Assembly: GCA_965205485.1 (NCBI GenBank)
Contig: OZ242180.1
Coordinates: 2,688,001 to 2,752,000 of the forward strand
From: Candidatus Latescibacterota bacterium
Lineage (GTDB): Bacteria; Latescibacterota; UBA2968; GCA-2709665
DNA: 64,000 nucleotides
Direction: 5' to 3'
In this document: one piece after another, positions 43,914 through 58,808 of the stretch
Layout of the letters: each line of letters starts with the position of its first letter
Numbering within the stretch: the first letter of the stretch is position 1
Made by a program: the position numbers and the translations under genes
Notes under the pieces: model-generated
Seen by the model: only the letters and a program-made list of their open reading frames with translations
The model's database searches: none
Told to the model about the DNA's origin: nothing

Positions 43914-44276
43914 ATGGGCGCGACTTACGTTGATGTAACCATCCGCAACCCCGCGGATCCGGAACGTTATTGGACCGGGAAATTTCTCGTCGATACAGGC
44001 GCATTCGACTCGCTTGTACCCAGGGCTCGGCTCGATGCGATCGGACTCACGCCAAGGGGCCGCCGCGAATATGTACTTGCGGATGGAAAGCCCATTGCCA
44101 TGGACATAACAATTGCGGAACTGGAGTTTGAAGGAGAAGTCGTCGGCGGGACAATCGTGTACGGGGACGAAGGCGCCGAACCGTTGCTCGGTGTGACCGC
44201 ACTGGAGTCCGGCGGATTCGAGGTCGACCCTCGCAATGAACAGCTCAAGCGGCTGCCGGCCGTTTTGTTGAAGTGA
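43914..44276 (+). CDS. Clan AA aspartic protease
   Basis: LVDTGA; LADG; PLLGVTALE. Confidence 0.85.
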   Translation: MGATYVDVTIRNPADPERYWTGKFLVDTGAFDSLVPRARLDAIGLTPRGRREYVLADGKPIAMDITIAELEFEGEVVGGTIVYGDEGAEPLLGVTALESGGFEVDPRNEQLKRLPAVLLK

Positions 44277-44423
44277 TGCAGTGTCTCCATGCGCTGCAAC
44301 ATGGCTGATGAATGGTAGTCGACGCAAAGTGGGCAACCACAAGGGTTGCCCCTACCAAATCATCCCGATGCGCAGTTTCCGAAGGGGCGACCAGCCGGTC
44401 GCCCCTTCGACTTTATTCTACGC

Positions 44424-44457
44424 TGTCGCAATACCTGCGACAATCCCTTCTTACGTT
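44424..44457 (+). promoter_or_regulatory. Palindromic operator + TAnnnT upstream of the WYL gene
   Basis: TGTCGCA-N5-TGCGACA-9 nt-TACGTT. Confidence 0.65.
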
Positions 44458-44474
44458 TATGTGGAGGGTTTCAG

Positions 44475-45446
44475 ATGGAACGCACAATGACCCGCGCCGA
44501 ACGTCTAAAGGCGATCGAGACTTATCTCTATCAATCGGCGGGCGGCAAGAAGGCCACGGACATCGCCTCGCGGTTCGCCGTACACCGAAGTACGGTGTAC
44601 CGGGACATTCAGTCGCTGGGCGAATCCGGGTCGCCGATATGGGAGGACAACGGGCAGTTCGGCGTGTTGAAGGAACGATATCTGACCACCGTCCGTGTCA
44701 ATCTGCACGAGGCCCTGGCGCTCTACCTGGCCGCTCGCCTGCTCTCTGCGCACAGCGACGAACACAATCCGCACGTCGTCTCTGCGCTCGAAAAGCTCGC
44801 AAGCGCAATGCCGGAGTCCATCGGCGAACACATCAACCGAACGGCCGCGGTTGCCGACAGGCGCAGGCCCGATCGCGATCACATCCGCATTCTGGAAACG
44901 CTCACGCGCGCCTGGTCCGAACGCAGGCAGGCGCGTATCGTCTACCACAACCCACAGACCGGCGAAACCACCGATCGTACCGTAGATCCCTACTTCATCG
45001 AGCCTTCGCCCGTGGGATACGCCTGCTACGTCATCGGTTACGACCATTTGCGGCAGGACATCCGAGAGTTCAAAGTGGAGCGAATTGAACGGGCGACGCT
45101 GCTGGAGACAAGATTCAAGACGCGGGTTGGCTTCGATCCGTACGAATTCCTCGAGCACTCGTGGGGCATCATGGGCGGTAACGAGGTCGTGGACGTCGTA
45201 CTCCGGTTTTCGGAGAAGGTCGCGTACCGCGTTCGGGAATCGGACTGGCCGGGGGTGGTGGACGTGACGGACGAGCCCGACGGCGGCTGCCGGCTGCGGC
45301 TCAGGGTGAAGCACACGCTCGAGATGAAGCCGTGGATCCGAGGCTGGGGGCCGGAGTGCGAGGTGCTGGCGCCGGAGGAGCTGAGAAACGAGATCGCCGA
45401 GGATATGATCAAGGCGGGGAGTGTGTATGAATCAGGATCCGTCTGA
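44475..45446 (+). CDS. WYL-domain transcriptional regulator (HTH-WYL-WCX)
   Basis: HTH (VHRSTVYRDI); VDPYFI..CYVIG..REFKVERI; WIRGWG.ECEVLAPEELR. Confidence 0.95.
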   Translation: MERTMTRAERLKAIETYLYQSAGGKKATDIASRFAVHRSTVYRDIQSLGESGSPIWEDNGQFGVLKERYLTTVRVNLHEALALYLAARLLSAHSDEHNPHVVSALEKLASAMPESIGEHINRTAAVADRRRPDRDHIRILETLTRAWSERRQARIVYHNPQTGETTDRTVDPYFIEPSPVGYACYVIGYDHLRQDIREFKVERIERATLLETRFKTRVGFDPYEFLEHSWGIMGGNEVVDVVLRFSEKVAYRVRESDWPGVVDVTDEPDGGCRLRLRVKHTLEMKPWIRGWGPECEVLAPEELRNEIAEDMIKAGSVYESGSV

Positions 45447-45747
45447 GATCAGAGACAGTAGGGGCGACCGGCCGGTCGCCCGCACAAAAACAACGCCAGC
45501 GCGAGGTTTCGGTTGTGGGCGGCCCTCCTATCTCTTCCGTCTTCGCCTCTTGCTGGCGGCCGGGGATTTGTTGGGTGCTACGATCCGTACTTCCCCATGC
45601 GCCGCCGGTTGACTTCCCTCTGATTGTCTGACCCGCATTTCGATAAACGGCTGTGAATTCCAACTTCTGTTGCACAGCCGCAACCTCTGTGACGCAAAAT
45701 GCGACATTTTTCACCATAAAATCAACAAATAGGACGAAGAATTCATC

Positions 45748-46443
45748 ATGAGTTCAACAATATATCCGTATATTGTACTCTCACGAACAACGGCACTGAA
45801 TGGCAGAACACCAAACTGGTTTGGGAACAATCAAGTTAAGGATGCCCGCATTGGCGACATCAATAGTGTGGGAATGGAGGACAGTTTGACGAGAGCCGAA
45901 ATCATCGCGCGTCGCCGCGAGTTCGAGATCCCAGGATACAAACACAAGTACAAGACGCTTGCAGACGTCGGGTTTGACGGCGAGTGGGTTACGCCATACC
46001 AGATCGTGTCGAGTTCCGAGACGGGTCCGGTACTGGTCGCACACTACTGGCTGGATGCCCCACAAGTCAATAGACATCGCCAGGTGCTGAAGGAGCACGG
46101 CTGGCTGCCGGGTATTCCCTTCAACAAAGTACTGACGCTGGCCCTTGAGCGGGCGAACCTGACCCGCGAGGACATCTATGTCACGCAAGCGTTTCATCTG
46201 TTGCCGTACAAGCAGTGGCCGCCGTTCCGTATACGACACATCGATGAATCGTTTGACAGAATCACACGGCACGAGTGCGCGGGTCGGACGGTCATCGCAC
46301 TCGGTACGGTCGCGCAACGCGCCTGTCGCCGCGCCGGCGTCGAGGCCATCGAATGTATCAGCCCAAGCGCTCGCCTGAGTTGGGAGTACAAGGTGGAAGA
46401 ACTCGCTAAGGCGCTGAAGACCGCGTTGGTGCGGATCGGATGA
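45748..46443 (+). CDS. Uracil-DNA glycosylase-superfamily protein
   Basis: LTREDIYVTQAF, VIALGTVA and SPSAR resemble UDG motifs; real start may be 45874. Confidence 0.55.
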   Translation: MSSTIYPYIVLSRTTALNGRTPNWFGNNQVKDARIGDINSVGMEDSLTRAEIIARRREFEIPGYKHKYKTLADVGFDGEWVTPYQIVSSSETGPVLVAHYWLDAPQVNRHRQVLKEHGWLPGIPFNKVLTLALERANLTREDIYVTQAFHLLPYKQWPPFRIRHIDESFDRITRHECAGRTVIALGTVAQRACRRAGVEAIECISPSARLSWEYKVEELAKALKTALVRIG

Positions 46444-46691
46444 GACGCCGGATGACACAGACAATCGTGACGACAGTTACGAACCGGTCGAGCAGCCTAA
46501 GGGTTGTGATGGCGCCGGCGACTGTTCTGATGCCCTGACGAGATCCTTGTAGATGGCCGAGAAGTTGCACATCGGACGGCATTCAAAAGCTCAAGCCGTA
46601 AACCGATGCCTGTCACATCTCCTGCTTTTCTGTTTTTCGGACGTCTTCGATGCCTGTCAACATCGTTTTTGCTTTTGGCTGTTCGCGGATC

Positions 46692-46802
46692 GCTTCCGTT
46701 CACTTCGGTGGGGGAGCGGATTGAAACGTAGGATCGGTCGGCTCGAAGGTCGTCACCGGCCCCAAAATCTCCCCGCACTTCGGTGGGGGGCGTGGATTGA
46801 AC
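46692..46802 (+). CRISPR. Orphan mini-array: two 36-nt type I-C-like repeats, one 39-nt spacer
   Basis: Both repeats end CACTTCGGTGGGGG(A/C)G(C/T)GGATTGAAAC (25/27 identical); spacer 46728-46766. Confidence 0.75.
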
Positions 46803-46914
46803 TTCGCGGCGGGACCCAGGTAGTACTGCGCGCCAATTCAACCTATACATTCGGGTCCAGCCTGTGATGTTCGGACCGGGTATTGATCCAATTTCATGAT
46901 GAAATGAGGCGACT

Positions 46915-47541
46915 ATGGATATGACCGAAATCTCCAGTCTGCTGGCACTGACGCTCGGGGTCGGCTGGGCTAGCGGGATCAATCTGTATGCAACCGTGTT
47001 TACTTTGGGGCTCGCCGGTTTAACAGGATACGTGGAATTACCTGATCAGCTCGATGCGATCCAGAATCCCTGGGTACTTGTCGCCGCAGGTTTGATGTAC
47101 CTTGTGGAGTTCGTCGCCGACAAGATCCCTGGATTCGACACGGTTTGGGATGTCATCCACACCTTCATTCGCGTTCCGGCGGGTGCTCTGATGGCTTTGG
47201 GGGCAACGGGTGATCACGGCTTGGCCCTGGATATGACTGGTGGACTGGCCGGCGGTATCATGGCCCTGAATAGCCACGCGACCAAGATGGGTTCGCGCGC
47301 GGCCATCAATACGAGCCCTGAGCCGTTTTCCAACTGGGCTGCATCAATCACAGAGGACATATCCGTCGTGGGCGGCTTGTGGCTGGCACTGAACCACCCC
47401 TGGACGTTTCTCGGTTTGCTGGTGTTGTTCGTCGTGCTCTCCGTTTTTTTGTTGCGGATAATCTGGTCAACTCTTAAAGCGGCGATTCGGAAAGTACGAT
47501 CCCGATGGCGTTCCGATCTCGCCCATAGTAGGGGAGAATGA
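46915..47541 (+). CDS. DUF4126-family membrane protein
   Basis: GWASGINLYA, EFVADKIPG.D..WD, SPEPFSN..S..ED. Confidence 0.9.
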   Translation: MDMTEISSLLALTLGVGWASGINLYATVFTLGLAGLTGYVELPDQLDAIQNPWVLVAAGLMYLVEFVADKIPGFDTVWDVIHTFIRVPAGALMALGATGDHGLALDMTGGLAGGIMALNSHATKMGSRAAINTSPEPFSNWAASITEDISVVGGLWLALNHPWTFLGLLVLFVVLSVFLLRIIWSTLKAAIRKVRSRWRSDLAHSRGE

Positions 47542-47635
47542 GCTTGCCGTTCCAATACGTGATTTGTCCCCCCGAGAATTCTCGACCTACCGCTGAGCAT
47601 CAACTGGCCCGCCCGCCGGCCCGGCCATAGGGACG

Positions 47636-47672
47636 CTTACTGGGAATCTTCCATCAGAACAAGGATTGAGAC
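47636..47672 (+). CRISPR. Type III-like CRISPR repeat R1, leader of small ORF A
   Basis: CTTACTGGGAATCTTCCATCAGAACAAGGATTGAGAC (37 nt). Confidence 0.75.
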
Positions 47673-47676
47673 GATT

Positions 47677-47853
47677 ATGCGAAATAGACAAGACACCGCT
47701 GGTATGCTGGTCTGGCATCCCGACGGCAAGCCCTACTCGCCGGCCGACTACGAAAAGGCGGGCATGCCGGTGCCCACGCCCGAGCAGCTCGCCCACTGGG
47801 CCGAGACCGACCGGTGGATCGCCGAACTCAAAGCCAAGTACGACACCGATTAG
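47677..47853 (+). CDS. Small ORF A, 58 aa, unknown function (absent from ORF track)
   Basis: MRNRQDTAGMLVWHPDGKPYSPADYEKAGMPVPTPEQLAHWAETDRWIAELKAKYDTD; 39/58 identical to ORF B. Confidence 0.8.
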   Translation: MRNRQDTAGMLVWHPDGKPYSPADYEKAGMPVPTPEQLAHWAETDRWIAELKAKYDTD

Positions 47854-47893
47854 CCCCCCTCCGTCGTCAACTCAACCACGTAGTAGTATTCCA

Positions 47894-47986
47894 CTCGCTC
47901 AGAATCTTCCATCAGAAAAGGGATAGAAATGCATGCCGGCAATGGCCGGTGCCTCGTGAGAGTCTTCCACCAGAACAAGTGGAGAC
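47894..47986 (+). CRISPR. Degenerate mini-array R2-21 nt-R3
   Basis: R2 CTCGCTCAGAATCTTCCATCAGAAAAGGGATAGAAAT; R3 CCTCGTGAGAGTCTTCCACCAGAACAAGTGGAGAC. Confidence 0.7.
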
Positions 47987-48101
47987 GTTGTTACACCGGC
48001 GGCAATAATTACCGACATGCGTGTCGGGGGACCTGGTCTATGAGGATCCCAACGACAGTCCATTCTATTGCAGTGAGCCTCGATCGAAGTGAAGGAATTG
48101 A

Positions 48102-49433
48102 ATGACCGCAGCCGGCAGGGAGAACGACCTAGCGCCCGTTGAGCGATGTCTTTCCATCGGCACCTGGAACATGGATCACTGGAAACGGACCACGCAGCAG
48201 CGCCGGGACGCATGGGATTACCTCAAAACAAACCGCAATGCTGACGTGATGCTGCTTCAGGAAAGCGTCGCGCCGGCTGGTATCCCCCGTACCAGTTTCG
48301 TGCACCGAGAGATCGCTGGCCGGCGGCCATGGGGATCATCGGTTGTGGCGTTCGCGGATGACGTGGAAATCGAGGAGGTCGATGCCGTACGCACCCGCTA
48401 CGGCGCCACGAGATACAGCTTGCTGGGAAGCCTTCCGGGTTCCTTAATCGTCGCTCGAATCCACGTGCCTGAAATCGGCCCTATTACGTGTGTGAGCGTC
48501 TATGGTACGATAGATGGCGTCTATGCGCAGACAACGATGTTTCGTGTTATTGCCGACCTGGTTCCGCTGTTTGACTCGGGCGACGGCAGGCGGGTCATTC
48601 TGGGCGGCGACTTCAATATTACAACAGCGGCGTCTCCCGAAACGCCCGAACGGCCTCGATACCGCGCCATCTTGTCTGGCATCGAATCACTCGGACTCGT
48701 CAATCTCGCCGAGACGGCAAAGTGTCGCCCGGACTCCATGCCTGGTTGTCCGTGCAGTGCCGATGATTGCCGCCACATCCGAACGTTCGGCGACAATCCT
48801 GGCACGCAGCTCGATTGGCTGTACGCCACGGAGGAACTCGCACGCAGGTGCACACGCCTGTCCGTCGATCACACCGTTATGGGTACAATGAGCGACCACG
48901 CGCCGCTCGTTGCCGAGTTTCGAGTCCCCCCGCTCGAGGGCAGCGGGGTTGTCGATCCGGATTCATTCGTCCGGGAACTTGCGGTCCGCACTGGTTCCGA
49001 GTGTGCTCGAATCGCGGAAGAACTGATCGCGTGGGCGCACTGGAAGCACGCGGAGCTGGATCGATGGGACCGGAAGGCCGTGTCCTTTGACCGATTGCCG
49101 ACGCGTGATAGCGATCCGCCGGAAATCTGGTTCCAGCTCGATAAAGGACGTCCGGGTCGAGAGAGGAATCTGTTGCAATGGACCTTCAGCATCAAGGCAC
49201 ACGGGCGCGTCGTCGTGCAATTTCGATGGTTGACCGGCCCGTTCAAACAGATGAGTGCGCGGGAAGAACTCTGGTCAGATTTGTGCCGGATTGAAGGCGT
49301 GTCTCTGGACAAGAATCTGAATAGCAAACCGAGCTTTTCCTTAAAGGCCCTGGCGCAGCCTGATCGCCTCGAGCAGTTTCAGCAGGTGTTTTCCAATATG
49401 ATTGACAAAACGCTGCAGGGAAACGCGGATTGA
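48102..49433 (+). CDS. Endonuclease/exonuclease/phosphatase (EEP) protein with extra C-terminal domain
   Basis: TWN, LLQE, GGDFN, QLDW, SDHAP; about 170-aa C-terminal extension. Confidence 0.85.
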   Translation: MTAAGRENDLAPVERCLSIGTWNMDHWKRTTQQRRDAWDYLKTNRNADVMLLQESVAPAGIPRTSFVHREIAGRRPWGSSVVAFADDVEIEEVDAVRTRYGATRYSLLGSLPGSLIVARIHVPEIGPITCVSVYGTIDGVYAQTTMFRVIADLVPLFDSGDGRRVILGGDFNITTAASPETPERPRYRAILSGIESLGLVNLAETAKCRPDSMPGCPCSADDCRHIRTFGDNPGTQLDWLYATEELARRCTRLSVDHTVMGTMSDHAPLVAEFRVPPLEGSGVVDPDSFVRELAVRTGSECARIAEELIAWAHWKHAELDRWDRKAVSFDRLPTRDSDPPEIWFQLDKGRPGRERNLLQWTFSIKAHGRVVVQFRWLTGPFKQMSAREELWSDLCRIEGVSLDKNLNSKPSFSLKALAQPDRLEQFQQVFSNMIDKTLQGNAD

Positions 49434-49502
49434 GACTGAACAGGACCCTTGAATCGTCGTCGTGAATGATCCGAGGAATACAAACTATGTGAAGGAGGTT
49501 CC

Positions 49503-50093
49503 GTGGACACGAGTGGTTTATCCGAATTCAGCCGTGATCTGGAGTCCTTGATCGGCAAGCCGACCGATCTGCGCCCGTTCGTTTGTGAAGGTTCTCCACT
49601 TGAATGCGAAGTGTTCCTCGTAGGTTTCAATCCTGCGAGCCCCATGTCCGTAGACTTTTGGGATTTCTGGAAGGACAGCTATGGATTCAACAAATGCGCC
49701 TGGTTCGAGAAGTACAAGTACGAGCGACGGAACCGCCCGCTGAAGCGTGGAAGGACGAGAAGGAATGAAGTAAGCAACACGCGTAGAACCATAGATGTCG
49801 TCGTCGAAAGTGCCAGACCCGTCAAATGCCTCGAAACGAACATCTACGCGAATGCGACTGAGCAGAAATCGGACCTGAAAGCAAAAGACAGAGTCACGGC
49901 GCCCTTCGACTATCTCCTGCACGAGGTCGCACCTAAGCTGGTGATTGCCCACGGCAGGGATGCCGCGAGTTACTTGCAAGGGCAGGACCTACCGTGCGAG
50001 CTTAAGTGTGTTCCACATTTCGCACTCGGTTGGTACGAGCAAAGCGCGCGAGATCTGGGTGTGTGTATTCGCAGGTATTGCGAAGGAAAGTAA
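49503..50093 (+). CDS. UDG-superfamily protein
   Basis: VFLVGFNP, ETNIY, PKLVIAHG, PHF motifs. Confidence 0.6.
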   Translation: MDTSGLSEFSRDLESLIGKPTDLRPFVCEGSPLECEVFLVGFNPASPMSVDFWDFWKDSYGFNKCAWFEKYKYERRNRPLKRGRTRRNEVSNTRRTIDVVVESARPVKCLETNIYANATEQKSDLKAKDRVTAPFDYLLHEVAPKLVIAHGRDAASYLQGQDLPCELKCVPHFALGWYEQSARDLGVCIRRYCEGK

Positions 50094-50167
50094 CCGCACC
50101 TCGCCGCGCAGACGTCAACTGATTGGATTTTTGGTTCAGGCTGATAGCCAATAGCTTGCTTCTCTGT

Positions 50168-50201
50168 TGTCGCAATTCCTGCGACAGATCCGGTTTATCT
50201 T
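50168..50201 (+). promoter_or_regulatory. Second palindromic operator + TAnnnT
   Basis: TGTCGCA-N5-TGCGACA-9 nt-TATCTT; palindrome 18/19 identical to 44424-44442. Confidence 0.65.
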
Positions 50202-50357
50202 GATATGGGTTGAGCAATATTGGTGAAACATCCGATGAGATGTACGGCTCTGTTCTTGGCGGGCAGGAACAGGACGGGAACGATTTGATGCCGCACGCTT
50301 CCGCATGACCGTTTTCGGGTACAGTCTCGAAGGTACAACCGGGTGGAGGGCTGAGCG

Positions 50358-50906
50358 ATGCCAAATGGAGGATCCGACTGTTGCGGGACCTGCTGGTTCA
50401 ATCGAAGGAATCAGGGCGAGCGCGACTGGTTGGCGCACGCAGACGAGAGTATACCGCCCTTTTGCGAGATCAGGGACATCGAGGTGGAGGATCCGTTCTA
50501 CACCTATTGCGCGAACCATCCTCATCGCCGGCCCGATCGCGACACCATTCCCATCGGGCCGGTGATGCGCCACGGCGGATGGAAAGAGGAACGGCGCGTC
50601 GAGGACGGTCAAACCATTTTATCCAGTTGCGAGAATCCTCGTTACGTCTGGAAACCCTCGCCGGATTCGGAAGAGATTCGCCAACACCTGCTGAATCTGC
50701 TGAATAGCATTTTCGAGCACATGTCAAGGGACCGGTATCCGATAGGCGCCGGTCTGGGAGAGACGATTATCCGGCAACTTGGCGAGTTTCGGGAGGAACG
50801 GTCGGTGAAGTATCTCGAATGGATACGCGAGAATCTCGAAGATTCGCTGGATTTCATGGCAGTCGCTGCCAACGAGGCGCTGGGCAAGATCCAGGAAAAT
50901 GAATAA
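50358..50906 (+). CDS. Cys-rich hypothetical protein with HEAT-like C-terminus
   Basis: CCGTCWFN...C...CANH; LGEFRE...AANEALGKI; GGAGG RBS. Confidence 0.75.
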   Translation: MPNGGSDCCGTCWFNRRNQGERDWLAHADESIPPFCEIRDIEVEDPFYTYCANHPHRRPDRDTIPIGPVMRHGGWKEERRVEDGQTILSSCENPRYVWKPSPDSEEIRQHLLNLLNSIFEHMSRDRYPIGAGLGETIIRQLGEFREERSVKYLEWIRENLEDSLDFMAVAANEALGKIQENE

Positions 50907-50961
50907 GCAGTGTACCCGGACGACAACACAGACCTTTTCGGAGAGATCGTCGACGGCTCGT

Positions 50962-50998
50962 TCCGCTGAGAATCTTCCTTCAGAACAAGGATCGAAAC
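50962..50998 (+). CRISPR. Type III-like CRISPR repeat R4, leader of small ORF B
   Basis: TCCGCTGAGAATCTTCCTTCAGAACAAGGATCGAAAC; 29/37 identical to R1. Confidence 0.75.
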
Positions 50999-51002
50999 AG
51001 CT

Positions 51003-51179
51003 ATGCGAAACAGACAAGATAGCGCAGGCATGCAGTGCTGGCACCCTGACGGCACGCCCTTCTCTGACGCCGACTACCGCCGGGCAAACCTCCCTGTGCC
51101 CACACCTGCGCAGTTGGCACACTGGGCCGAAATGAAACGGCTCATCGATGAGATGAAAGCACGCCACGACACCGAGTAA
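51003..51179 (+). CDS. Small ORF B, 58 aa, paralog of ORF A (absent from ORF track)
   Basis: MRNRQDSAGMQCWHPDGTPFSDADYRRANLPVPTPAQLAHWAEMKRLIDEMKARHDTE. Confidence 0.8.
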   Translation: MRNRQDSAGMQCWHPDGTPFSDADYRRANLPVPTPAQLAHWAEMKRLIDEMKARHDTE

Positions 51180-51180
51180 G

Positions 51181-51217
51181 CCCGGCGAGAATCTTCCGTT
51201 AGAACAAGAGAGGACAC
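51181..51217 (+). CRISPR. Degenerate repeat R5, leader of the DUF6361 gene
   Basis: CCCGGCGAGAATCTTCCGTTAGAACAAGAGAGGACAC; fills nearly the whole intergenic gap. Confidence 0.7.
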
Positions 51218-51218
51218 A

Positions 51219-52430
51219 ATGCAGGCGACGTTGACCTGGCTCGATCTGACGGCAAGCGACCGGGACAAGATGCGGCGGGTGCTGGACCTGTTCAATGAGC
51301 AGGGCACCCTCGATGAGATGGGACTCGGAAACCTTCGAGACGCGATTTCTGACGCGCTGTTTCCCGGGACCTCTTATATCCAGACGCGGCTGCGCTATGT
51401 ACTCTTCATTCCCTGGATCTACCAGAGGCTGGAGGCGCGGCGCGTCAGGAGCGTGGATGTAGCACAGGCCGCGCGCAAGGCGGAAGTCGATCTAATCGGG
51501 CGGCTTGAGCAGGGCCAAGACAAGAAAGGCATCATCGGCGTACTCGCTGGCCATTCGCTAGTACGGTTGCCGAGTTCCATATACTGGAGTGCACTCACTC
51601 GATGGGACGTCTTCAGGCCTCAACAGAGCCAGAGTTGGTATCACACGAACTTCGATACCCTGTTGGAAGGTCGCAGCGACGTGGGGCGGGCAGACGATCC
51701 GGGCGTGATCTGGAGCCGAGATGCACACTGGAATCCGCGTATGCCAGAGCCACCGGACGGCTTTCCTGAGGGAGCATCCTTTGCGTTGACCCGCGACGAG
51801 GCGGACTTTCTTTGTAGCCGCCTGGAGGAAACGTGTGCCGGCACGCTTCTGGCGTGGCTGGCCCGCACTGGAACCGATTCGCCCGCGAAAGATTCCTGGA
51901 AGGATCCGGACGCTCTCCGTGCACCTCAGGATATCCTTGATACCGTCGAACTGGCACGGCGTTTTTCACTACATGTCGAGGGCATGCCGCTGCTCTACAA
52001 TCTGGTTGTGGCGGAACACCGCCGCGAGATGCTTGACTCTGACGATGAGGGCGAATTGATCAGCTCGTACCGTACAGAGCTCACTGAGTGGGCGGACTCT
52101 GAGGCGGAAGAAGCTCAACCATTCGATCCGGATCCGCTGTGGGAATTGGTAGCCCGACGCGGTGGGCGCACTCCACATCATCAACGACTCTTCATTCAAG
52201 ATTGGTCTCGACAGATTGCCAAGTTGGATGCCGACATGATCGCCGACGACCCACGGCTGCGGGCGATGGTAACCGAACGCGAGTTAAACCTGAAGGGAGC
52301 GCGCGCACGACTTGGAAACCGTAGTCGCCTGATGGAATGGACGCCAGGGGTAGGTGTTGGTCGGATGGACTTTCGCTGGGTTCGCGTCCGGCAGTTTCTT
52401 ACGGACCTTCACAGGGGGTTGGCCGCCTGA
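51219..52430 (+). CDS. DUF6361-family protein (defence triad, gene 1)
   Basis: WLD...GTLDEMGLG..RDA.SD.LFPGTS.IQTRLRY.LFIP; C-terminal MDFRW. Confidence 0.8.
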   Translation: MQATLTWLDLTASDRDKMRRVLDLFNEQGTLDEMGLGNLRDAISDALFPGTSYIQTRLRYVLFIPWIYQRLEARRVRSVDVAQAARKAEVDLIGRLEQGQDKKGIIGVLAGHSLVRLPSSIYWSALTRWDVFRPQQSQSWYHTNFDTLLEGRSDVGRADDPGVIWSRDAHWNPRMPEPPDGFPEGASFALTRDEADFLCSRLEETCAGTLLAWLARTGTDSPAKDSWKDPDALRAPQDILDTVELARRFSLHVEGMPLLYNLVVAEHRREMLDSDDEGELISSYRTELTEWADSEAEEAQPFDPDPLWELVARRGGRTPHHQRLFIQDWSRQIAKLDADMIADDPRLRAMVTERELNLKGARARLGNRSRLMEWTPGVGVGRMDFRWVRVRQFLTDLHRGLAA

Positions 52431-54265
52431 TGTTATCGCCCGATACGCGATCCACCGCCTTCGAATTGCTACGCCCGCCCTGCGGGTACCAACTCGACCT
52501 CGCGGTGCTTTCCACTTACACGCTCGATCTTGAAACACTGCTCGTACTCCCCTTGTCGGTACTTGCACATTCCGATGGTGGACTGGATGAGTTATTGGCC
52601 GATCCGCTCTGTCTGCAACAGGCAATCCGGGATGCGGGTGACCGCATTCATGCTTTCGTGGACGAATCCGGAATCGCGATTCCACGCAACGCGCGATCGC
52701 TGTACTCGATGCTTGAGTCGAGCGTCCACGCCGTACGTGCCCCGAATGGCGGCGCATTCCACCCAAAGGTGTGGGTGGCTCGATTCGTTGCCTCTGATGA
52801 GGATGCTGAAGACCTATTGCGCGTTGCGATCCTGTCGCGAAACCTGACCTTTGACCGTTCCTGGGACATCGCACTGACGAGCGAGGCGTCCATCCGGGGC
52901 CGTCGACGTGTCGCCGTGAGCAGGCCGCTACGCGACTTTCTGCTGACATTGCCGCAACTCTCAACCAGCCCCGTACACGAGAACGTCGTAGCACGTCTCA
53001 AGGCATTAGCCGAACAGGTTTCGCGAACCGCTTTCCCTGCCCCTGACGGCTTCGCCGATCCGGTCGCGTTCCATTTACTCGGATTGCAGAAACGCCGCCG
53101 TCTGTGGCGCCCGCCGTCTACCGGGTATCGAACACTCGCAGTATCGCCGTTCATCAGCCGGACCGGACTGGAGGTGGTCGGGGAGTTGAGCGGTAACGAC
53201 CGGATGCTGGTGAGCCGACAGGAGGAACTCGACAGACTCGGTCAGGATGCGCTGGCTGAATGGAACGATGTATTCGTCCTTTCAGATGCCGCGCATGGGG
53301 AATCCGACGAAAGTCTGGCTGATGAAAACCAACCCGCAGCTGGTGGAATTGATCGCCCGTCGGGGTTGCATGCCAAGATGATCGCCGTGGAGCATGGTTG
53401 GGACGTTACCTGGTACGTGGGTTCCGCGAACCTGACCTCGTCTGCATTAAGCGGCAGCAACGTCGAAATGGTGGCGTCCGTCACCGGCAGGAAGGGACGC
53501 AAGGGGGGCCACAGCGGTCATGGTATCGATCGGTTCCTTGACGCCGGATTTCGGAAGCTGTGTGTGAAGTATGAGAGAGTCGAACCGGAGAAAGAAGACC
53601 CAGCCATCACCGATTCGCGAAATCGTCTTGAGGCGGCACGGGACGCCCTGTTGAGGACTGACCTGTGCGTGAATTGCGTTTCCGCAGGTGACGCCTGGAC
53701 CTTGACGATTGACGGAGACGGTATTCCGTGCGCCGACGATGTCGAGGTCGTAACTTGGCCCGTCTCCGTCGCCGAAGATCAAGCCTTGCTGCTGGAGAAG
53801 GCGGTCAGTTGGAGGTTGCCCGTTGCGCGTCTTACGGCATTCATCGCCTTTCGGCTGAGCGTCGACGTCGGTGGCGTGGACGACGTCAGAATGACCCTTA
53901 GTCTACCCGCTCAAGGAATCCCGGAGGATCGCATGCATCACGTGCTCCGGGGCCTGTTGGACAGTCCGGAGAAGTTCCTTCGATTCCTTCGGGCATTGCT
54001 CGGCGGGCTCGATTCCGTTTTTGGCTGGGCGCAGGAACCCAGGCAGGGAGACGCGGCCTTCGCCTGGGGAATCGGGGAGGGTGGCGAGACATTGCTCGAC
54101 GACCTTGTCCGCACTGCCTCAAGAGACCCCGATCGCCTGAAGCCGGTACGTCGCCTGATCGACGACCTTCGGAAGACGGAAGAAGGGCGCCGTATCGTAC
54201 CTGACGAACTATTCGGTATCTGGACGGCAGTCGAGGAGGCACTCGCACCGGAGCCACGACTATGA
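52430..54265 (+). CDS. Phospholipase D-superfamily nuclease (triad, gene 2)
   Basis: FHPK...SRNLT and LHAK...GSANLT; TGATG coupling to the upstream gene. Confidence 0.85.
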   Translation: MLSPDTRSTAFELLRPPCGYQLDLAVLSTYTLDLETLLVLPLSVLAHSDGGLDELLADPLCLQQAIRDAGDRIHAFVDESGIAIPRNARSLYSMLESSVHAVRAPNGGAFHPKVWVARFVASDEDAEDLLRVAILSRNLTFDRSWDIALTSEASIRGRRRVAVSRPLRDFLLTLPQLSTSPVHENVVARLKALAEQVSRTAFPAPDGFADPVAFHLLGLQKRRRLWRPPSTGYRTLAVSPFISRTGLEVVGELSGNDRMLVSRQEELDRLGQDALAEWNDVFVLSDAAHGESDESLADENQPAAGGIDRPSGLHAKMIAVEHGWDVTWYVGSANLTSSALSGSNVEMVASVTGRKGRKGGHSGHGIDRFLDAGFRKLCVKYERVEPEKEDPAITDSRNRLEAARDALLRTDLCVNCVSAGDAWTLTIDGDGIPCADDVEVVTWPVSVAEDQALLLEKAVSWRLPVARLTAFIAFRLSVDVGGVDDVRMTLSLPAQGIPEDRMHHVLRGLLDSPEKFLRFLRALLGGLDSVFGWAQEPRQGDAAFAWGIGEGGETLLDDLVRTASRDPDRLKPVRRLIDDLRKTEEGRRIVPDELFGIWTAVEEALAPEPRL

Positions 54266-57200
54266 AGCGTCCTTGCGTCAGCGCGAGTCTGAAACCGCTA
54301 AAGTCCTTTCAGCGTCGTACCGTGGAGCACGCCTTCCACCGCCTGTTCACTGCGGAAGACGGAACCGGGCGTTTTCTGGTGGCTGACGAGGTAGGCCTCG
54401 GGAAGACGCTGGTCGCCCGGGGTATCATTGCCCGTACCATCGATCACCTCTGGACCGACGTCGAACGGATCGACATTGTCTACATTTGCAGTAACGCCAG
54501 CATCGCGCGTGCCAATCTGCCAAAGCTCAGGATCGGAGGCGCCGAAGAACGGTCGTTCGCATTAGCGACCCGTCTCACGATGTTGGCCACGCAACTGGCG
54601 CGTAAGGAAGGTGAACCTGGTCTGATCGACAGCAAGCTGAACTTCGTCAGCTTCACGCCGGGCACGTCCTTTAACATGGGGCAATCCGCAGGGCAGCGCC
54701 AGGAGCGGGAGGTGCTGTTTCAACTGCTCGATCCGCTGACAGAGCGGCGCACGGCGCTTATGAACTTCCTGCAGGGATGGATTACGGACAGAGATGACTG
54801 GCGCTGGTACCTTAAGAACCGCCCCCGCCCTATCGAAGACATGATACGTCGAAGGTTTGAGAATGCATTTTGCAAGCGCCACGGTCTGGAGGACAGATTT
54901 CAAGGCATCCTTGGTGCGTTCCGCCGCTACCGGGTAAATTGGCCTGACGATGTGCGGTACCAGCGGGACCGGCTCATATCCGAGTTGCGCCGCCTGCTGG
55001 CCGGAGTGTGTGTCCGCGCCCTCGAGCCGGATCTCGTGATCATGGACGAGTTCCAGCGCTTCAAGTCACTGCTCGACACAAGTGGCGTAGAGCGAGACCC
55101 TGCAGCGCACCTGGCTCACGAGTTGTTCCAGGCCAAGGCGCATGACGGTAAGCGCGTGCGGACGCTCTTGCTCTCCGCGACTCCGTACAAGCTCTACACC
55201 GCAGATGCGGAGATTGAGCAGGAAGACCATTACGAAGACTTTCTGGCAACTACCGAATTCCTCCTCGGCGATGAAGACGGTCGCGTTGAAGAGCTTAAAC
55301 GCCAATTGTCGCGTTTCGGGTCCGCGTTGAAGGGCACGGCGGCCGGAGAACCGGATAAGGCCAAGAGAATCGAACGCGCGAAGCACGAGGTCGAGGTATC
55401 ACTTAAGAACGTGATGGCACGAACCGAGCGTGTCGCAGCCAGTGAAGAGCACGACGCGATGGTGGCGGAGGTGCCGAGCAACGTGACCGTGACCTCAACC
55501 GATGTGCGCCAGTACCTGGCCGCAGATGCCCTGTTTAGGGCTATCGGTGACCGCGATCCGATGCCGTTCTGGAAGTCGGCGCCGTACCTTGCTCATTTCA
55601 TGCACGGTTACAGGTTCAACGAACTACTCGCAGAGGCGATTAAGTCACCGAGAAAGATCGTCGAGGTCTTCCAGCAGCACGAGTCTGCGTTCTTGAAGGC
55701 TGCGACGATTCGCTCCTGGGAGAGCATTGACCCCGGAAACGCGAAGCTGCGTGAGATGGTTGGGGAACTGATCGACGAGGGAATGTGGCGACTTCTCTGG
55801 ATGCCGCCGACGCTTCCGTACTGGCCGCTTGAAGGACCGTTCAAGGGAACGGCACAGGCAACGAAACGCCTGTTGTTCTCTGCATGGAACGTCGTGCCCG
55901 ACGTTGTCAGCGCCGTTCTGAGCTACGAAGCGGAACGTCTGATGACACGTAGTCCACGCGGCCGGATTGAATCCTACGAAAGACTCGTCGAGCAGCAGAG
56001 GCCGCTCTTGAGACTTACGCAGTCGGTAGTCGGTCGACGGTCACGACATCGTCTACTGCTTTTGCTCTTGCCCTGCCTTCCGCTGGCAGATGGGGCCCAT
56101 CCTCTTGATGCGCCGCCCGGCCAGGATCGCCGGGCGTGGGTCCGGTCGCGAGTCGACGAAATTCTTTCTGACACAGAGCTTCCGAACCCAAAGCAAGGTA
56201 ATATCGACGACAGGTGGGAATGGATCGCGCCGCTCCTGATAGATCCTGAACTGCGCGGTTTCCTTCGGGCTTGGGTGAACGGCGGGCTTCCCGGGTTGTC
56301 AGCAAATGAGCGACTACCGCAGCCAAACCCGGAAGTCTTTGGCGCTTACGTAGATGATTTGCTTGACGTCGAATTGCGTACCCTAGGCCGGCGACCACCG
56401 CATCTTGCAGAATTGCTCACCGACGTCGCACTTGGCTCGCCCGCAATACTCGCAGCACGCAGTCTAAGAAATAGGACGAATATCGGCGACGGTACGCGAC
56501 GTCGGCTCGCCGTGATGATTTCACTTGCGTTCTGGAGCCTCTTCAATCAGCCGGCTGTAATCACACTGATGCGTCAACTGGCTTCAGATTCGGCCGAAGC
56601 CAGGAATGAATCAGCCTACTGGCGTCTTGTGCTCGGCTATTGCCGGCAAGGCAACCTGCAAGCAGTACTGGACGAACAATGGCACCTGCTTTGGGACCAG
56701 GAGTCGTGGTCCGGCGACGCCAGCGGCGACGAAACCGCCGAAGGGTGCGCCCGCAAACTCATCCAGGTTGTGCGTCCAATGCGTGCTCGTGTCCATGCAA
56801 GGTTTTTCGAGATTAAGGGTGCAGGAGGAAATGGATCGACGCTTGCAAGTGATGAAGTCCGCCTTCGTACGGCTTTCGCGCTGCGCTTCGGCCACATCAG
56901 CACGGATGAAGGCGTTCACATCAGCCAGGACGCCGTTAGAGACGCCTTCAATAGTCCGTTTCGTCCCTTTGTACTTACCAGTACATCGATTGGGCAGGAA
57001 GGGCTCGATTTTCATCCTTGGTGCCACCGCTTGGTCCACTGGAACCTGCCCGGCAATCCGGTCGATCTCGAACAACGCGAAGGCCGCATCCATCGATACA
57101 AGGGACACGCGATCCGTCGAAATGTCGCTGCCCGCCATGCGCATGACGCGCTGACGTCATGGAGGGCCGGAGACGACATTTGGATACGGATGTTCGAGTT

Positions 57201-57471
57201 AGCCGACCAGGCGGCGCGAGCTTCCGGGGAAAGTGATCTGGTACCTCACTGGATCGCCCCCGGAGATTGCTTGGTACAGCGCCATGTGCCACTCCTGCCA
57301 TACACGACGGAGATCGAGGCGTTCAAACGCCTCAAACGTCAACTCGCGGCCTACCGGGTTGTCTTTGGGCAACCCCGCCAGGAGGAACTCGTTGCGCTGC
57401 TCGACCGATCTGACGTCGACGTCACGAAATTCAAAGAATGGGCGATCGATCTCTCGCCACCAGAGATCTGA
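54262..57471 (+). CDS. SF2 (SNF2-like) helicase (triad, gene 3)
   Basis: ADEVGLGKT, DEFQ, SAT, GQEGLDF, QREGRIHR; ATGA overlap. Confidence 0.9.
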   Translation: MKRPCVSASLKPLKSFQRRTVEHAFHRLFTAEDGTGRFLVADEVGLGKTLVARGIIARTIDHLWTDVERIDIVYICSNASIARANLPKLRIGGAEERSFALATRLTMLATQLARKEGEPGLIDSKLNFVSFTPGTSFNMGQSAGQRQEREVLFQLLDPLTERRTALMNFLQGWITDRDDWRWYLKNRPRPIEDMIRRRFENAFCKRHGLEDRFQGILGAFRRYRVNWPDDVRYQRDRLISELRRLLAGVCVRALEPDLVIMDEFQRFKSLLDTSGVERDPAAHLAHELFQAKAHDGKRVRTLLLSATPYKLYTADAEIEQEDHYEDFLATTEFLLGDEDGRVEELKRQLSRFGSALKGTAAGEPDKAKRIERAKHEVEVSLKNVMARTERVAASEEHDAMVAEVPSNVTVTSTDVRQYLAADALFRAIGDRDPMPFWKSAPYLAHFMHGYRFNELLAEAIKSPRKIVEVFQQHESAFLKAATIRSWESIDPGNAKLREMVGELIDEGMWRLLWMPPTLPYWPLEGPFKGTAQATKRLLFSAWNVVPDVVSAVLSYEAERLMTRSPRGRIESYERLVEQQRPLLRLTQSVVGRRSRHRLLLLLLPCLPLADGAHPLDAPPGQDRRAWVRSRVDEILSDTELPNPKQGNIDDRWEWIAPLLIDPELRGFLRAWVNGGLPGLSANERLPQPNPEVFGAYVDDLLDVELRTLGRRPPHLAELLTDVALGSPAILAARSLRNRTNIGDGTRRRLAVMISLAFWSLFNQPAVITLMRQLASDSAEARNESAYWRLVLGYCRQGNLQAVLDEQWHLLWDQESWSGDASGDETAEGCARKLIQVVRPMRARVHARFFEIKGAGGNGSTLASDEVRLRTAFALRFGHISTDEGVHISQDAVRDAFNSPFRPFVLTSTSIGQEGLDFHPWCHRLVHWNLPGNPVDLEQREGRIHRYKGHAIRRNVAARHAHDALTSWRAGDDIWIRMFELADQAARASGESDLVPHWIAPGDCLVQRHVPLLPYTTEIEAFKRLKRQLAAYRVVFGQPRQEELVALLDRSDVDVTKFKEWAIDLSPPEI

Positions 57472-57578
57472 AACGATCAAAAGTAGCTGAGAAGTTTCGG
57501 AATTTGGGCGTTGTGCGGGATTCCATACACGCCATTTGAGACACTAAACGCCCGTCGCGAAGACAAACTCGCTGTTCG

Positions 57579-57615
57579 ATTTCTCCTCACTTCGGAGAGA
57601 GGAGCGAATTGAAAC
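57579..57615 (+). CRISPR. Solitary type I-C-like repeat abutting a GTG start
   Basis: ATTTCTCCTCACTTCGGAGAGAGGAGCGAATTGAAAC; shares CACTTCGG, ATTGAAAC and upstream GCTGTTCG with the 46.7-kb mini-array. Confidence 0.65.
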
Positions 57616-58140
57616 GTGAAGCGCACACGGACACGTGCGATCGTGGGGTCATTCGTCTTCTTCTGGGTCGCGCCGGCTGTCGTTGCCGGCGTCATCCCGT
57701 TCGCGCTGGTCGGCTGGACGATGCAGCCGCCGCTGCTCGGGCTGCCCGGCGAGCGGGTATTGGGAGCCGCGGCCGTCGCGGCGGGTCTGGCCTGCCTGCT
57801 GGACTGCTTCGCCCGTTTCGCCCTCGAGGGTCGTGGCACACCGGCGCCGGTGGCGCAGACCGAAATACTGGTCGCTTCCGGCCTCTATCGGTTCGTGCGA
57901 AACCCGATGTATATCTCCATGTTGATCATCATTTCAGGGCAGACGCTGCTCTTTGGCCAGGCACGGCTGTTGGTTTACGCCGGGGTGGTGTTTGCCGCGT
58001 TCCACCTGAACGTGCTGCTCTATGAGGAGCCGCAACTCCGTCGAAGATTCGGAGGGTCGTACGAGACCTACCGCCTGCACGTGGGTCGCTGGTGGCCACG
58101 CCTGACGCCGTGGCGCGGGTCAGGTACGCCAGGCTGCTGA
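57616..58140 (+). CDS. Isoprenylcysteine carboxylmethyltransferase/PEMT-family membrane protein
   Basis: GRGTPAP, GLYRFVRNPMY, EEP.L..FG..Y..Y. Confidence 0.9.
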   Translation: MKRTRTRAIVGSFVFFWVAPAVVAGVIPFALVGWTMQPPLLGLPGERVLGAAAVAAGLACLLDCFARFALEGRGTPAPVAQTEILVASGLYRFVRNPMYISMLIIISGQTLLFGQARLLVYAGVVFAAFHLNVLLYEEPQLRRRFGGSYETYRLHVGRWWPRLTPWRGSGTPGC

Positions 58141-58376
58141 CGACGCCGGCAAATCAGGTGTGACGCTGAACAATGGAAAGAGGCAGCATGTCGGATCGTC
58201 CGCTCGGAAATCAGGTGGCGGTCGTTGACGGTCCGGATCCTGTCCAGGGGGACGTTCTCGAATATGCCTCCAGGATCGTTGCGGCCCCCGTTGTCAGGCT
58301 CACGCCTCATTGGAAATTCGCGCTCCTTTCAGGTTAATACTTCGCAGGACAACGCAACTCATTTTCAAGGAGGAAT

Positions 58377-58808
58377 ATGATGCTCAGGAACATCCTCGCC
58401 GCCGTCGTCGGCTACATTGCCATGGCCGCCGTTCTCTTCGTTCTCTTCTCGCTTCTGTGGCTGACGCTAGGGCCCTCGCGCGCCTTCCAGCCGGGTTCGT
58501 GGGAGGTATCCGGCAGCTGGGCACTCGGCTCACTCGTGCTCGGGCTCGTGGGCGCGTACATCGGCGGACGAGTCTGTGCCAGTGTGGCGCACAATGCCAG
58601 GGCCGCCACGATTCTAATCGCCGTCGTTCTCGTGCTCGGGGTGGTGACGGCCCTGATGCCGGTGGATATGTCGGCCGGACCGCGCCCGGACGACGTGTCG
58701 ATGATGGAGGCGACCGCAGGCGCTCGCCAGCCGGCGTGGTTCAACTGGCTCAACCCACTGATCGGGGTCATGGGCGTCTGGTTCGGATCGCGGAAGTTGC
58801 GCGCGTAG
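58377..58808 (+). CDS. Hypothetical 4-TM membrane protein
   Basis: AGGAGG RBS; four hydrophobic segments. Confidence 0.75.
   Translation: MMLRNILAAVVGYIAMAAVLFVLFSLLWLTLGPSRAFQPGSWEVSGSWALGSLVLGLVGAYIGGRVCASVAHNARAATILIAVVLVLGVVTALMPVDMSAGPRPDDVSMMEATAGARQPAWFNWLNPLIGVMGVWFGSRKLRA

Follow-up and report, generated by a model that had tools for sequence, protein, structure and literature searches.

Within a 64,000-nucleotide stretch of the chromosome of Candidatus Latescibacterota bacterium (contig OZ242180.1, positions 2,688,001 to 2,752,000; hereafter the window, in whose own coordinates all positions below are given), the segment from 46.7 to 57.6 kb is very probably the remnant of a CRISPR locus that has no cas genes and in which protein genes occupy the positions of spacers. 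At its centre are two paralogous open reading frames (ORFs) of 58 amino acids, ORF A (47677..47853, + strand) and ORF B (51003..51179, + strand), each starting a few nucleotides after a degenerate CRISPR repeat. This coding-spacer arrangement extends across a whole genus. An earlier interpretation of the window, made from its letters alone (the sequence-only reading), had proposed that the repeat serves as the ribosome-binding site of a toxin or guard protein whose production is silenced when Cas6 cuts the messenger; its description of the locus has proved accurate, whereas its toxin, and its silencing in this genome, have not. The explanation that we favour is a cas-less remnant in which the repeat would supply a non-lethal small protein with its Shine-Dalgarno (SD) sequence, with Cas6b uncoupling that SD from the start codon in those relatives that encode the enzyme; taken as a whole, we would back it at about even chances.

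The repeat in question, which we term F1, is 37 nt long and occurs in the window as five degenerate copies, all on one strand and spanning 47636-51217, which were mapped by direct reading of the sequence together with a repeat finder. R1 (47636..47672, + strand) is a solitary copy with one mismatch in the 29-nt core, bears the 3′ tag ATTGAGAC and carries the AAGGA that would act as SD for ORF A. R2 (47894..47930, + strand) is a degenerate copy 40 nt past the ORF A stop and R3 (47952..47988, + strand) another, 114 nt upstream of an EEP-family gene. R4 (50962..50998, + strand), again solitary, has two mismatches and the tag ATCGAAAC and carries the putative SD of ORF B, which fills the spacer position that follows. 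R5 (51181..51217, + strand) retains the 5′ two-thirds of the repeat, its 3′ third having been remodelled to GAGAGGA, which gives the defence gene zacA an SD at the normal distance. The 20-nt core GAATCTTCCNTCAGAACAAG has five matches in the window with at most three mismatches, against 0.04 expected from shuffled sequence; R1 to R5 are the sole forward-strand core matches in the whole 5.1-Mb genome, and the opposite strand has, elsewhere in the genome, two matches with three mismatches. A further 58-aa ORF after R2 (47929-48105) overlaps R3, lies outside the small-protein family and was treated as a chance occurrence.

The geometry on which the sequence-only reading was built agrees with the coordinates and the alignment throughout. 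ORFs A and B share 39 of 58 residues (67%), and both ATG codons stand 4 nt past the end of the repeat, the linkers being GATT for ORF A and AGCT for ORF B. R4 ends at 50998 and R5 begins at 51181, leaving a 182-bp "spacer" that contains ORF B. The AAGGA within the repeat is the sole SD-like motif ahead of either ATG, at a longish spacing, and the two predicted Cas6 cut sites are where they had been placed, between AAGG and ATTGAGAC at 47665 in R1 and between AAGG and ATCGAAAC at 50991 in R4. A promoter scan of 44000-58500 returned 5 sites where 5.0 were expected, none of them at the repeats, a search of the whole window with Rfam gave no family at its gathering score, and among RNA runs none was listed for 47500-51400.

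That F1 belongs to a CRISPR system, as had been supposed, is established by its relatives (designated here by our working labels): F1 is a real type I-B CRISPR repeat. In a family-level set of 22 genomes, F1 arrays are present in four congeners, G013, G015, G019 and G023, with 37, 38, 68 and 81 matches, respectively, and the array of G019 adjoins a type I-B operon of the order cas6b-cas8b-cas7-cas5-cas3-cas1. Relatives of the peptide lie at eight loci in metagenome-assembled genomes labelled Latescibacterota or Gemmatimonadota; at locus L013, CTCAGAGAGAATCTTCCATCAGAACAAGGATTGAAAC recurs 65 times at a regular period of ~74 nt, and upstream of this array are genes for Cas6b (PADLOC E 1e-58), Cas8b, Cas7, Cas5, Cas3 and Cas1, the composition of type I-B. 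The F1 consensus ends in the 8-nt tag ATTGAAAC, from which the tags of R1 and R4 depart at a single position each, and the published account of Cas6b from two other organisms, in the portion that concerns us, has 37-nt I-B repeats cut so as to leave the 8-nt tag AUUGAAAC (PMC3479195). The claim that Cas6 would cut 8 nt from the repeat end fits both; because Cas6b leaves an 8-nt tag from 37-nt I-B repeats, the predicted cut site is well founded for those relatives that have Cas6b, and, since F1 ends in a tag of this type, the predicted cut would part AAGGA from the AUG. Could the SD instead be controlled by RNA structure? The F1 consensus folds at -3.3 kcal/mol, compared to -4.2 +/- 2.1 kcal/mol for shuffles, and RNAalifold applied to 73 solitary F1 copies returned no structure, the candidate stem having no compensatory changes. 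F1 thus lacks a stable fold, and concealment of the SD in a hairpin was rejected.

Judged by their codon substitutions, the small ORFs are coding sequences under purifying selection. Among the 15 pairs formed by six 58-aa copies, the ratio of nonsynonymous to synonymous substitution rates (dN/dS) was 0.06-0.25 in the 11 diverged, unsaturated pairs (dS 0.6 to 2.8) and about 0.5 in two near-identical pairs, and it could not be computed for two saturated pairs. The protein family is nearly confined to one genus: it is present in 14 of 53 genomes of the order, namely the window's genome, 12 of the 14 other members of its genus and one of two genomes in a second genus, and in none of 36 genomes from nine other genera. 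The locus is chromosomal and partly syntenic across congeners. A word-index search retrieved 4 proteins, and a profile search of 1.8 billion representatives retrieved 43 at E <=0.001, 9 of these at E <=1e-10; the long profile matches, FG-GAP or tick-peptide repeat proteins, were discarded as spurious, and the short ones share the core WHPDGTPFSxxDYRxAGLPVPTPEQLAxWA. Several members from metagenomes run past the stop into translated F1, which gives them the tails ...HLQNKD, ...VFHQNKD and ...ENLPSEQGLK. A metagenome scan found three loci, one of them a full relative, and the viral contigs that were scanned encode no relative of the small protein.

What kind of protein is this? Pfam gave nothing at E up to 5 for 32 family members, PADLOC had no match for the small protein, Foldseek against the PDB returned nothing at E 0.001 or better, the best Z in a wide VIA search was 3.2, and the protein atlas produced no usable match. 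In a sequence profile search of the PDB, a weak, local match of 22 residues (HPDGTPYTDAD) was seen to the N-terminal end of a type IB topoisomerase from a bacterium (2f4q residues 15-37, E 7e-4); the Pfam family Top1B_N_bact has no match to the window ORFs, and the similarity to topoisomerase is unconfirmed. The AlphaFold model (predicted local distance difference test score 83) has a short beta bridge and two helices, one short and the other long, and the protein is acidic. The domain also occurs fused, as the C-terminus of a 421-aa ORF (L012:10338-11603) and in 450-aa forms (P0025, P0028) in which it follows a zinc-finger-like CxxC pair and precedes a helix-turn-helix (HTH)-like domain.

The linkage of repeat and ORF was followed in loci fetched from 15 genomes, in which all mapped repeats, 257 of F1 and 113 of a second family, F2, are in the forward orientation and none is reversed. 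Hand-merging of 39 hidden Markov model rows gave 35 gene copies, several of them frameshifted. Twenty-seven of the 35 directly follow F1 and two follow an F2-type repeat, at 5 nt and 20 nt; six have no upstream repeat, five of which run into an F1 copy just downstream. Looked at from the side of the repeat, 23 of 73 solitary F1 copies directly precede a family member, with an offset between repeat and AUG of 4 nt in 13, 5 nt in seven, 3 nt in two and 2 nt in one. The ORF stop is often 0-1 nt ahead of the next repeat, and in G015 the ORF forms the first "spacer" of a degenerate mini-array of four repeats. Across 253 pairs of units, identity is 0.81 in the 29-nt repeat core, 0.74 at codon positions 1+2 and 0.47 at position 3, from which it follows that the repeat is kept as strictly as the protein. 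The association in relatives is tight, and the objection that homologs might lack the repeat falls away.

The window's genome, which is a single contig and 97% complete, no longer has the machinery of such a system. There is no CRISPR array by k-mer and TRF scan, no Cas1, and no Cas6, whether PF01881 or the cognate Cas6b sequence served as the query; when 12 Cas proteins from two relatives were run in tblastn, none had a match at E 1e-3 or better. A TIGR02807 search for Cas6 likewise had no match, a result that shows little as its control was also silent. The host bacterium has lost its CRISPR genes, and the element is a relic without a Cas partner. The search for a cognate cas6 that the sequence-only reading had called for therefore divides: a Cas6b gene stands beside the array of G019, but the window's own genome has none. 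With neither Cas6 nor other Cas genes in this genome there is nothing present to do the silencing, and the proposal that ORFs A and B are silenced by Cas6 here is unsupported. In the genus at large, the small ORFs are present in 10 of 10 Cas1-bearing genomes and in three of five Cas1-less ones (G000 with two copies, G011 with two and G018 with one; the window's genome is among the three), and the comparison of ORF A with the G018 copy, both from Cas-less genomes, gives dS 1.57 and dN/dS 0.07.

In congeners, a cas operon of type I-C, I-B or I-MYXAN and its arrays are followed by a tail of solitary repeats, in which the unstructured, I-B-type F1 and the hairpin-forming, I-C-type F2 all lie in array orientation and genes take the places of spacers. 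Most common among these "coding spacers" is the gene for the ~58-aa protein, its AUG lying 2-5 nt past F1 (4 or 5 nt for 20 of the 23); in the explanation that we favour, the AAGGA of F1 would act as its Shine-Dalgarno sequence. We incline to the view that the repeat AAGGA is indeed used for translation; an SD precedes 40% of starts in the window's genome, versus 16% in a control interval. Where a cognate Cas6b is present, its cleavage of the repeat 8 nt before the end would part the SD from the AUG and leave a 12-nt leader that starts with the CRISPR RNA tag, so that the protein would be made mainly from unprocessed transcript and would, in effect, report it. That gating of this kind is at work in the Cas6b-bearing relatives is possible but rather doubtful, both the position of the cut and its effect on translation being predictions from the repeat and the behaviour of Cas6b elsewhere. 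In the window's genome, ORFs A and B would be simply SD-bearing genes, if transcribed, because there is no Cas6 in the genome. The small protein itself would be non-lethal, and probably something other than a toxin.

Several observations count against this explanation. AGGA begins at -15 relative to the AUG, and the SD-like 4-mers ahead of 2788 long ORFs of the genome peak at -13 to -10 with a mode of -11; the AAGGA is thus 2-4 nt farther from the AUG than the mode, making its spacing longish. Seven of the 35 gene copies have no F1 within 8 nt upstream, one of these having F2 20 nt upstream. The Cas6b type is found in just 3 of the 13 carrier genomes of the genus, yet the repeats are conserved, and the mismatches of the upstream repeats are alike in Cas-less genomes (1, 2, 4 and 7) and Cas-bearing ones (mean about 3). 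That mismatch counts do not depend on the presence of Cas leads to the conclusion that repeat conservation is not explained by Cas6b alone, and something besides Cas6b gating may maintain the repeats.

The order of the island in the window is a WYL gene, a UDG-like gene, two F2 repeats, a DUF4126 gene, R1, ORF A, R2, R3, the EEP gene, two unknown ORFs, R4, ORF B, R5, ZacABC, a further F2 and a PEMT-like gene. At the left end of the former CRISPR locus, the HTH-WYL-WCX regulator (44346..45446, + strand) is of the CRISPR-associated WYL type and has the same PADLOC matches as the WYL gene heading the type I-C operon of G023 (L062:15181-16203). The two solitary F2 copies that follow (46691-46727 and 46767-46803, + strand) are hairpin-type and I-C-like. 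F2 has a 10-bp hairpin, the end GGATTGAAAC and a fold of -19.1 kcal/mol; F2 arrays are present in four relatives, and those of G023 follow a type I-C operon, WYL-cas5c-cas8c-cas7c-cas3-cas4-cas1. Between R2 and R3 is a short pseudo-spacer (47931..47951, + strand) that resembles GCAGTGGCCGGTGACC, which is conserved after repeats in relatives; counting the shortened form in the window, eight genomes have this pseudo-spacer or trailer, GCAGTGG(C/T)CGGTGA(C/T)C, behind a solitary or terminal repeat, a placement resembling that of a CreA/CreR-type guide, and the sites include those in the window (47931-47951), in L013 (5460-5480 and 10215-10240) and in regions of G011, G015, G016, G020 and G022.

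The cargo between R3 and R4 (48102..50906, + strand) comprises the EEP-family nuclease/phosphatase-like gene (48102-49433), a 196-aa ORF (49503-50093) and a 182-aa ORF (50358-50906). At 49424-49436, overlapping the stop of the EEP gene, GCGGATTGAGAC resembles the 3′ end of a decayed repeat. Between R5 and F2, the defence genes ZacA, ZacB and ZacC (51219..57471, + strand) form a complete operon, with PADLOC E values of 1e-122, 3e-159 and 0, and in all four congeneric ZacABC loci seen a small ORF and a degenerate repeat stand ahead of zacA. The right end of the island is a solitary F2 repeat (57579..57615, + strand) that abuts the GTG start (57616) of the PEMT-like gene. In G022 the locus has a third cas type, I-MYXAN, with an array of its own 36-nt repeat (27 copies; L014 3415-5369), and degenerate F1-like repeats are still found ahead of Nmad3, GmrSD and a small ORF; as these gene-bearing repeats lie behind I-MYXAN, the tail therefore also sits behind non-cognate systems. 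The island in the window holds two UDG-superfamily-like paralogues (45748-46443 and 49503-50093) in addition to the EEP gene, and in relatives the island is occupied by genes for Nmad3, SRAP, GmrSD and MazF; this suggests that the cargo is aimed at modified or damaged DNA.

One rival explanation is that the repeats act as DNA, being recombination sites for the capture, duplication and shuffling of genes in the manner of integron cassettes, with the SD a by-product. Much in the island would be accounted for in this way: the cargo differs among congeners (ZacABC, EEP, Nmad3, GmrSD, PEMT-like), orientation is uniform with F1 and F2 interleaved, the start of the same PEMT-like gene abuts F2 in three genomes (the window's and two relatives) and F1 in two others, zacA genes that are almost the same in sequence have small ORFs of different subfamilies ahead of them, three or more cas types occur at the locus across the genus, and copies without an upstream repeat still have a downstream one. 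We nevertheless consider it unlikely, as no integrase or transposase is among the neighbours scanned with Pfam, 37 bp is short for homologous recombination, and the fixed offset of 4-5 nt to the AUG, together with the remodelling of R5 to a better SD, points to selection on expression. Four metagenomic DNA runs, all from one study, covered 45400-58400 and contain joints at repeat edges (e.g., 47669 to 47903 and 47669 to 51203), but their sides are merely 26-30 nt, which makes them unreliable, and they were not counted as evidence of rearrangement. A second rival makes the small protein an accessory factor or regulator of CRISPR which binds F1 RNA or DNA, or a Cas component, and so tunes array transcription, array processing or the translation of its own message; the joint evolution of repeat and ORF would then be explained. 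The family occurs solely beside these repeats and is carried by every Cas1-bearing genome of the genus, as against three of five without Cas1; the repeat is preserved over its full length in genomes in which no Cas6b was found; and the fused forms with an HTH-like domain and the local resemblance to the topoisomerase N-terminal region would both suit such a role. It is set against a protein that is acidic, that has no recognisable nucleic-acid-binding fold by VIA or Foldseek at the levels given above, and to which, in the window, Top1B_N_bact has no match, and we regard a regulator as a fairly improbable solution.

The guard model of the sequence-only reading holds that the protein is a toxin or a trigger of abortive infection whose mRNA is silenced by the Cas6 cut between SD and AUG, and that the protein is released once Cas6 is lost or inhibited, with addiction or an anti-anti-CRISPR response as the outcome. 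The geometry does fit the Cas6b-bearing relatives, whole repeats are conserved well past the SD, as would be expected if recognition by Cas6 were still needed, and toxins that guard CRISPR systems do exist, both as RNA (CreT; PMC8501985) and, by the published description that bears on this point, as protein (CreP; 10.1101/2024.01.05.574328). A lethal toxin is disfavoured, however, because intact, selected copies persist in Cas-less genomes: the window's genome keeps two without any Cas machinery, others remain in G011 and G018, which have no Cas1, and the low dN/dS between ORF A and the G018 copy is that of genes preserved by selection. The rarity of the Cas6b type among carriers tells against the model as well, as does a protein with no toxin family, no membrane segment and no fold match, nor any PADLOC match. 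A Cas6-silenced toxin is accordingly unsupported in the window's genome and unlikely in general, and the guard model as proposed seems to us very improbable. The remaining alternative would be a module like CreTA or CrePA, in which R2, the pseudo-spacer and R3 encode a CreA-like guide with which Cascade represses the small-ORF promoter. The conservation of the pseudo-spacer after repeats in eight genomes, the shortened form of the window included, is what such a module would lead one to expect, but the 9-mers of the R2-R3 pseudo-spacer, compared with 44000-58500, reveal no target, their one 9-nt match near the ORFs being within the coding sequence of ORF A, and the window's genome has no Cascade genes, so that we think this extremely unlikely.

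Returning to the explanation of a cas-less remnant with repeat-borne SD sequences, it can be widened into a scenario for the whole family, in which the genes evolved as the "spacers" of CRISPR arrays, the repeat is their ribosome-binding site, the processing of CRISPR RNA gates their translation and the cell thereby reads, at a post-transcriptional level, the presence of unprocessed pre-crRNA and with it a shortage or inhibition of Cas6, with the repeats forming at the same time the boundaries of an integron-like tail of expressed defence cassettes. Gating would here mean that Cas6b severs SD from AUG, after which Cascade is perhaps loaded on the tag. So comprehensive a scenario is speculative, and in its entirety we doubt that it is correct.

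In the literature that we searched, open-access papers and bioRxiv only, there is no account of a protein gene that takes the place of a spacer and has its SD within the repeat. Integron cassettes are genes of the same orientation parted by a short repeated site, with cargo that varies among close relatives. The island in the window shares these three features, but no integrase is among its Pfam-scanned neighbours and its recurring site is a CRISPR repeat. The published systems, considered in those parts of their descriptions that deal with repeats and genes outside ordinary arrays, each show a partial likeness. CreTA and CrePA (PMC8501985; 10.1101/2024.01.05.574328) also have degenerate repeats beside a small gene in or near a CRISPR locus and expression tied to Cas activity; there, the CreA guide with Cascade represses the promoter of a toxin gene that is not flanked by repeats, whereas here the gene is in a spacer position, the SD is in the repeat, no guide target was found, no toxicity is indicated and the host is without cas genes. 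CreR and the degenerate mini-CRISPRs that regulate cas genes (10.1101/2023.03.10.532045) are likewise old, non-evolving units of repeat, spacer and repeat kept between genomes, but they are described as non-coding guides with spacers of normal length, and the 182-bp insert in the window encodes a selected protein. The solitary repeat units known as Racr (PMC10651486) resemble F1 in being single CRISPR repeats outside arrays; those reported are non-coding decoys of phages and plasmids, and ours are chromosomal, lie in an array tail and have flanking ORFs. Cas6 or Csy4 sites engineered into mRNAs to control their stability and translation (PMC4604432, PMC13478208) are alike in that a Cas6 site in a 5′ untranslated region can switch downstream translation, but these are synthetic, and we found no natural gene family wired in this manner in the literature searched. 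Finally, Tn7-like transposons in arrays (PMC11837452) also place protein-coding DNA inside CRISPR arrays, as Tns transposons at a fixed spacer position in the account given there; the window's island has no transposition genes, and its ORFs fit the repeats within a few bases.

Solitary and degenerate CRISPR repeats have so far been known as sources of small regulatory RNAs, such as CreA, CreR and Racr. If processing of the repeat does gate the translation of the gene behind it, then the family would represent a natural translational switch operated by Cas6, and with it a new way of sensing the state of the CRISPR machinery. If, on the other hand, the repeats are the boundaries of cassettes, then the tails of CRISPR arrays would be collecting sites for defence genes, of which ZacABC is an example.

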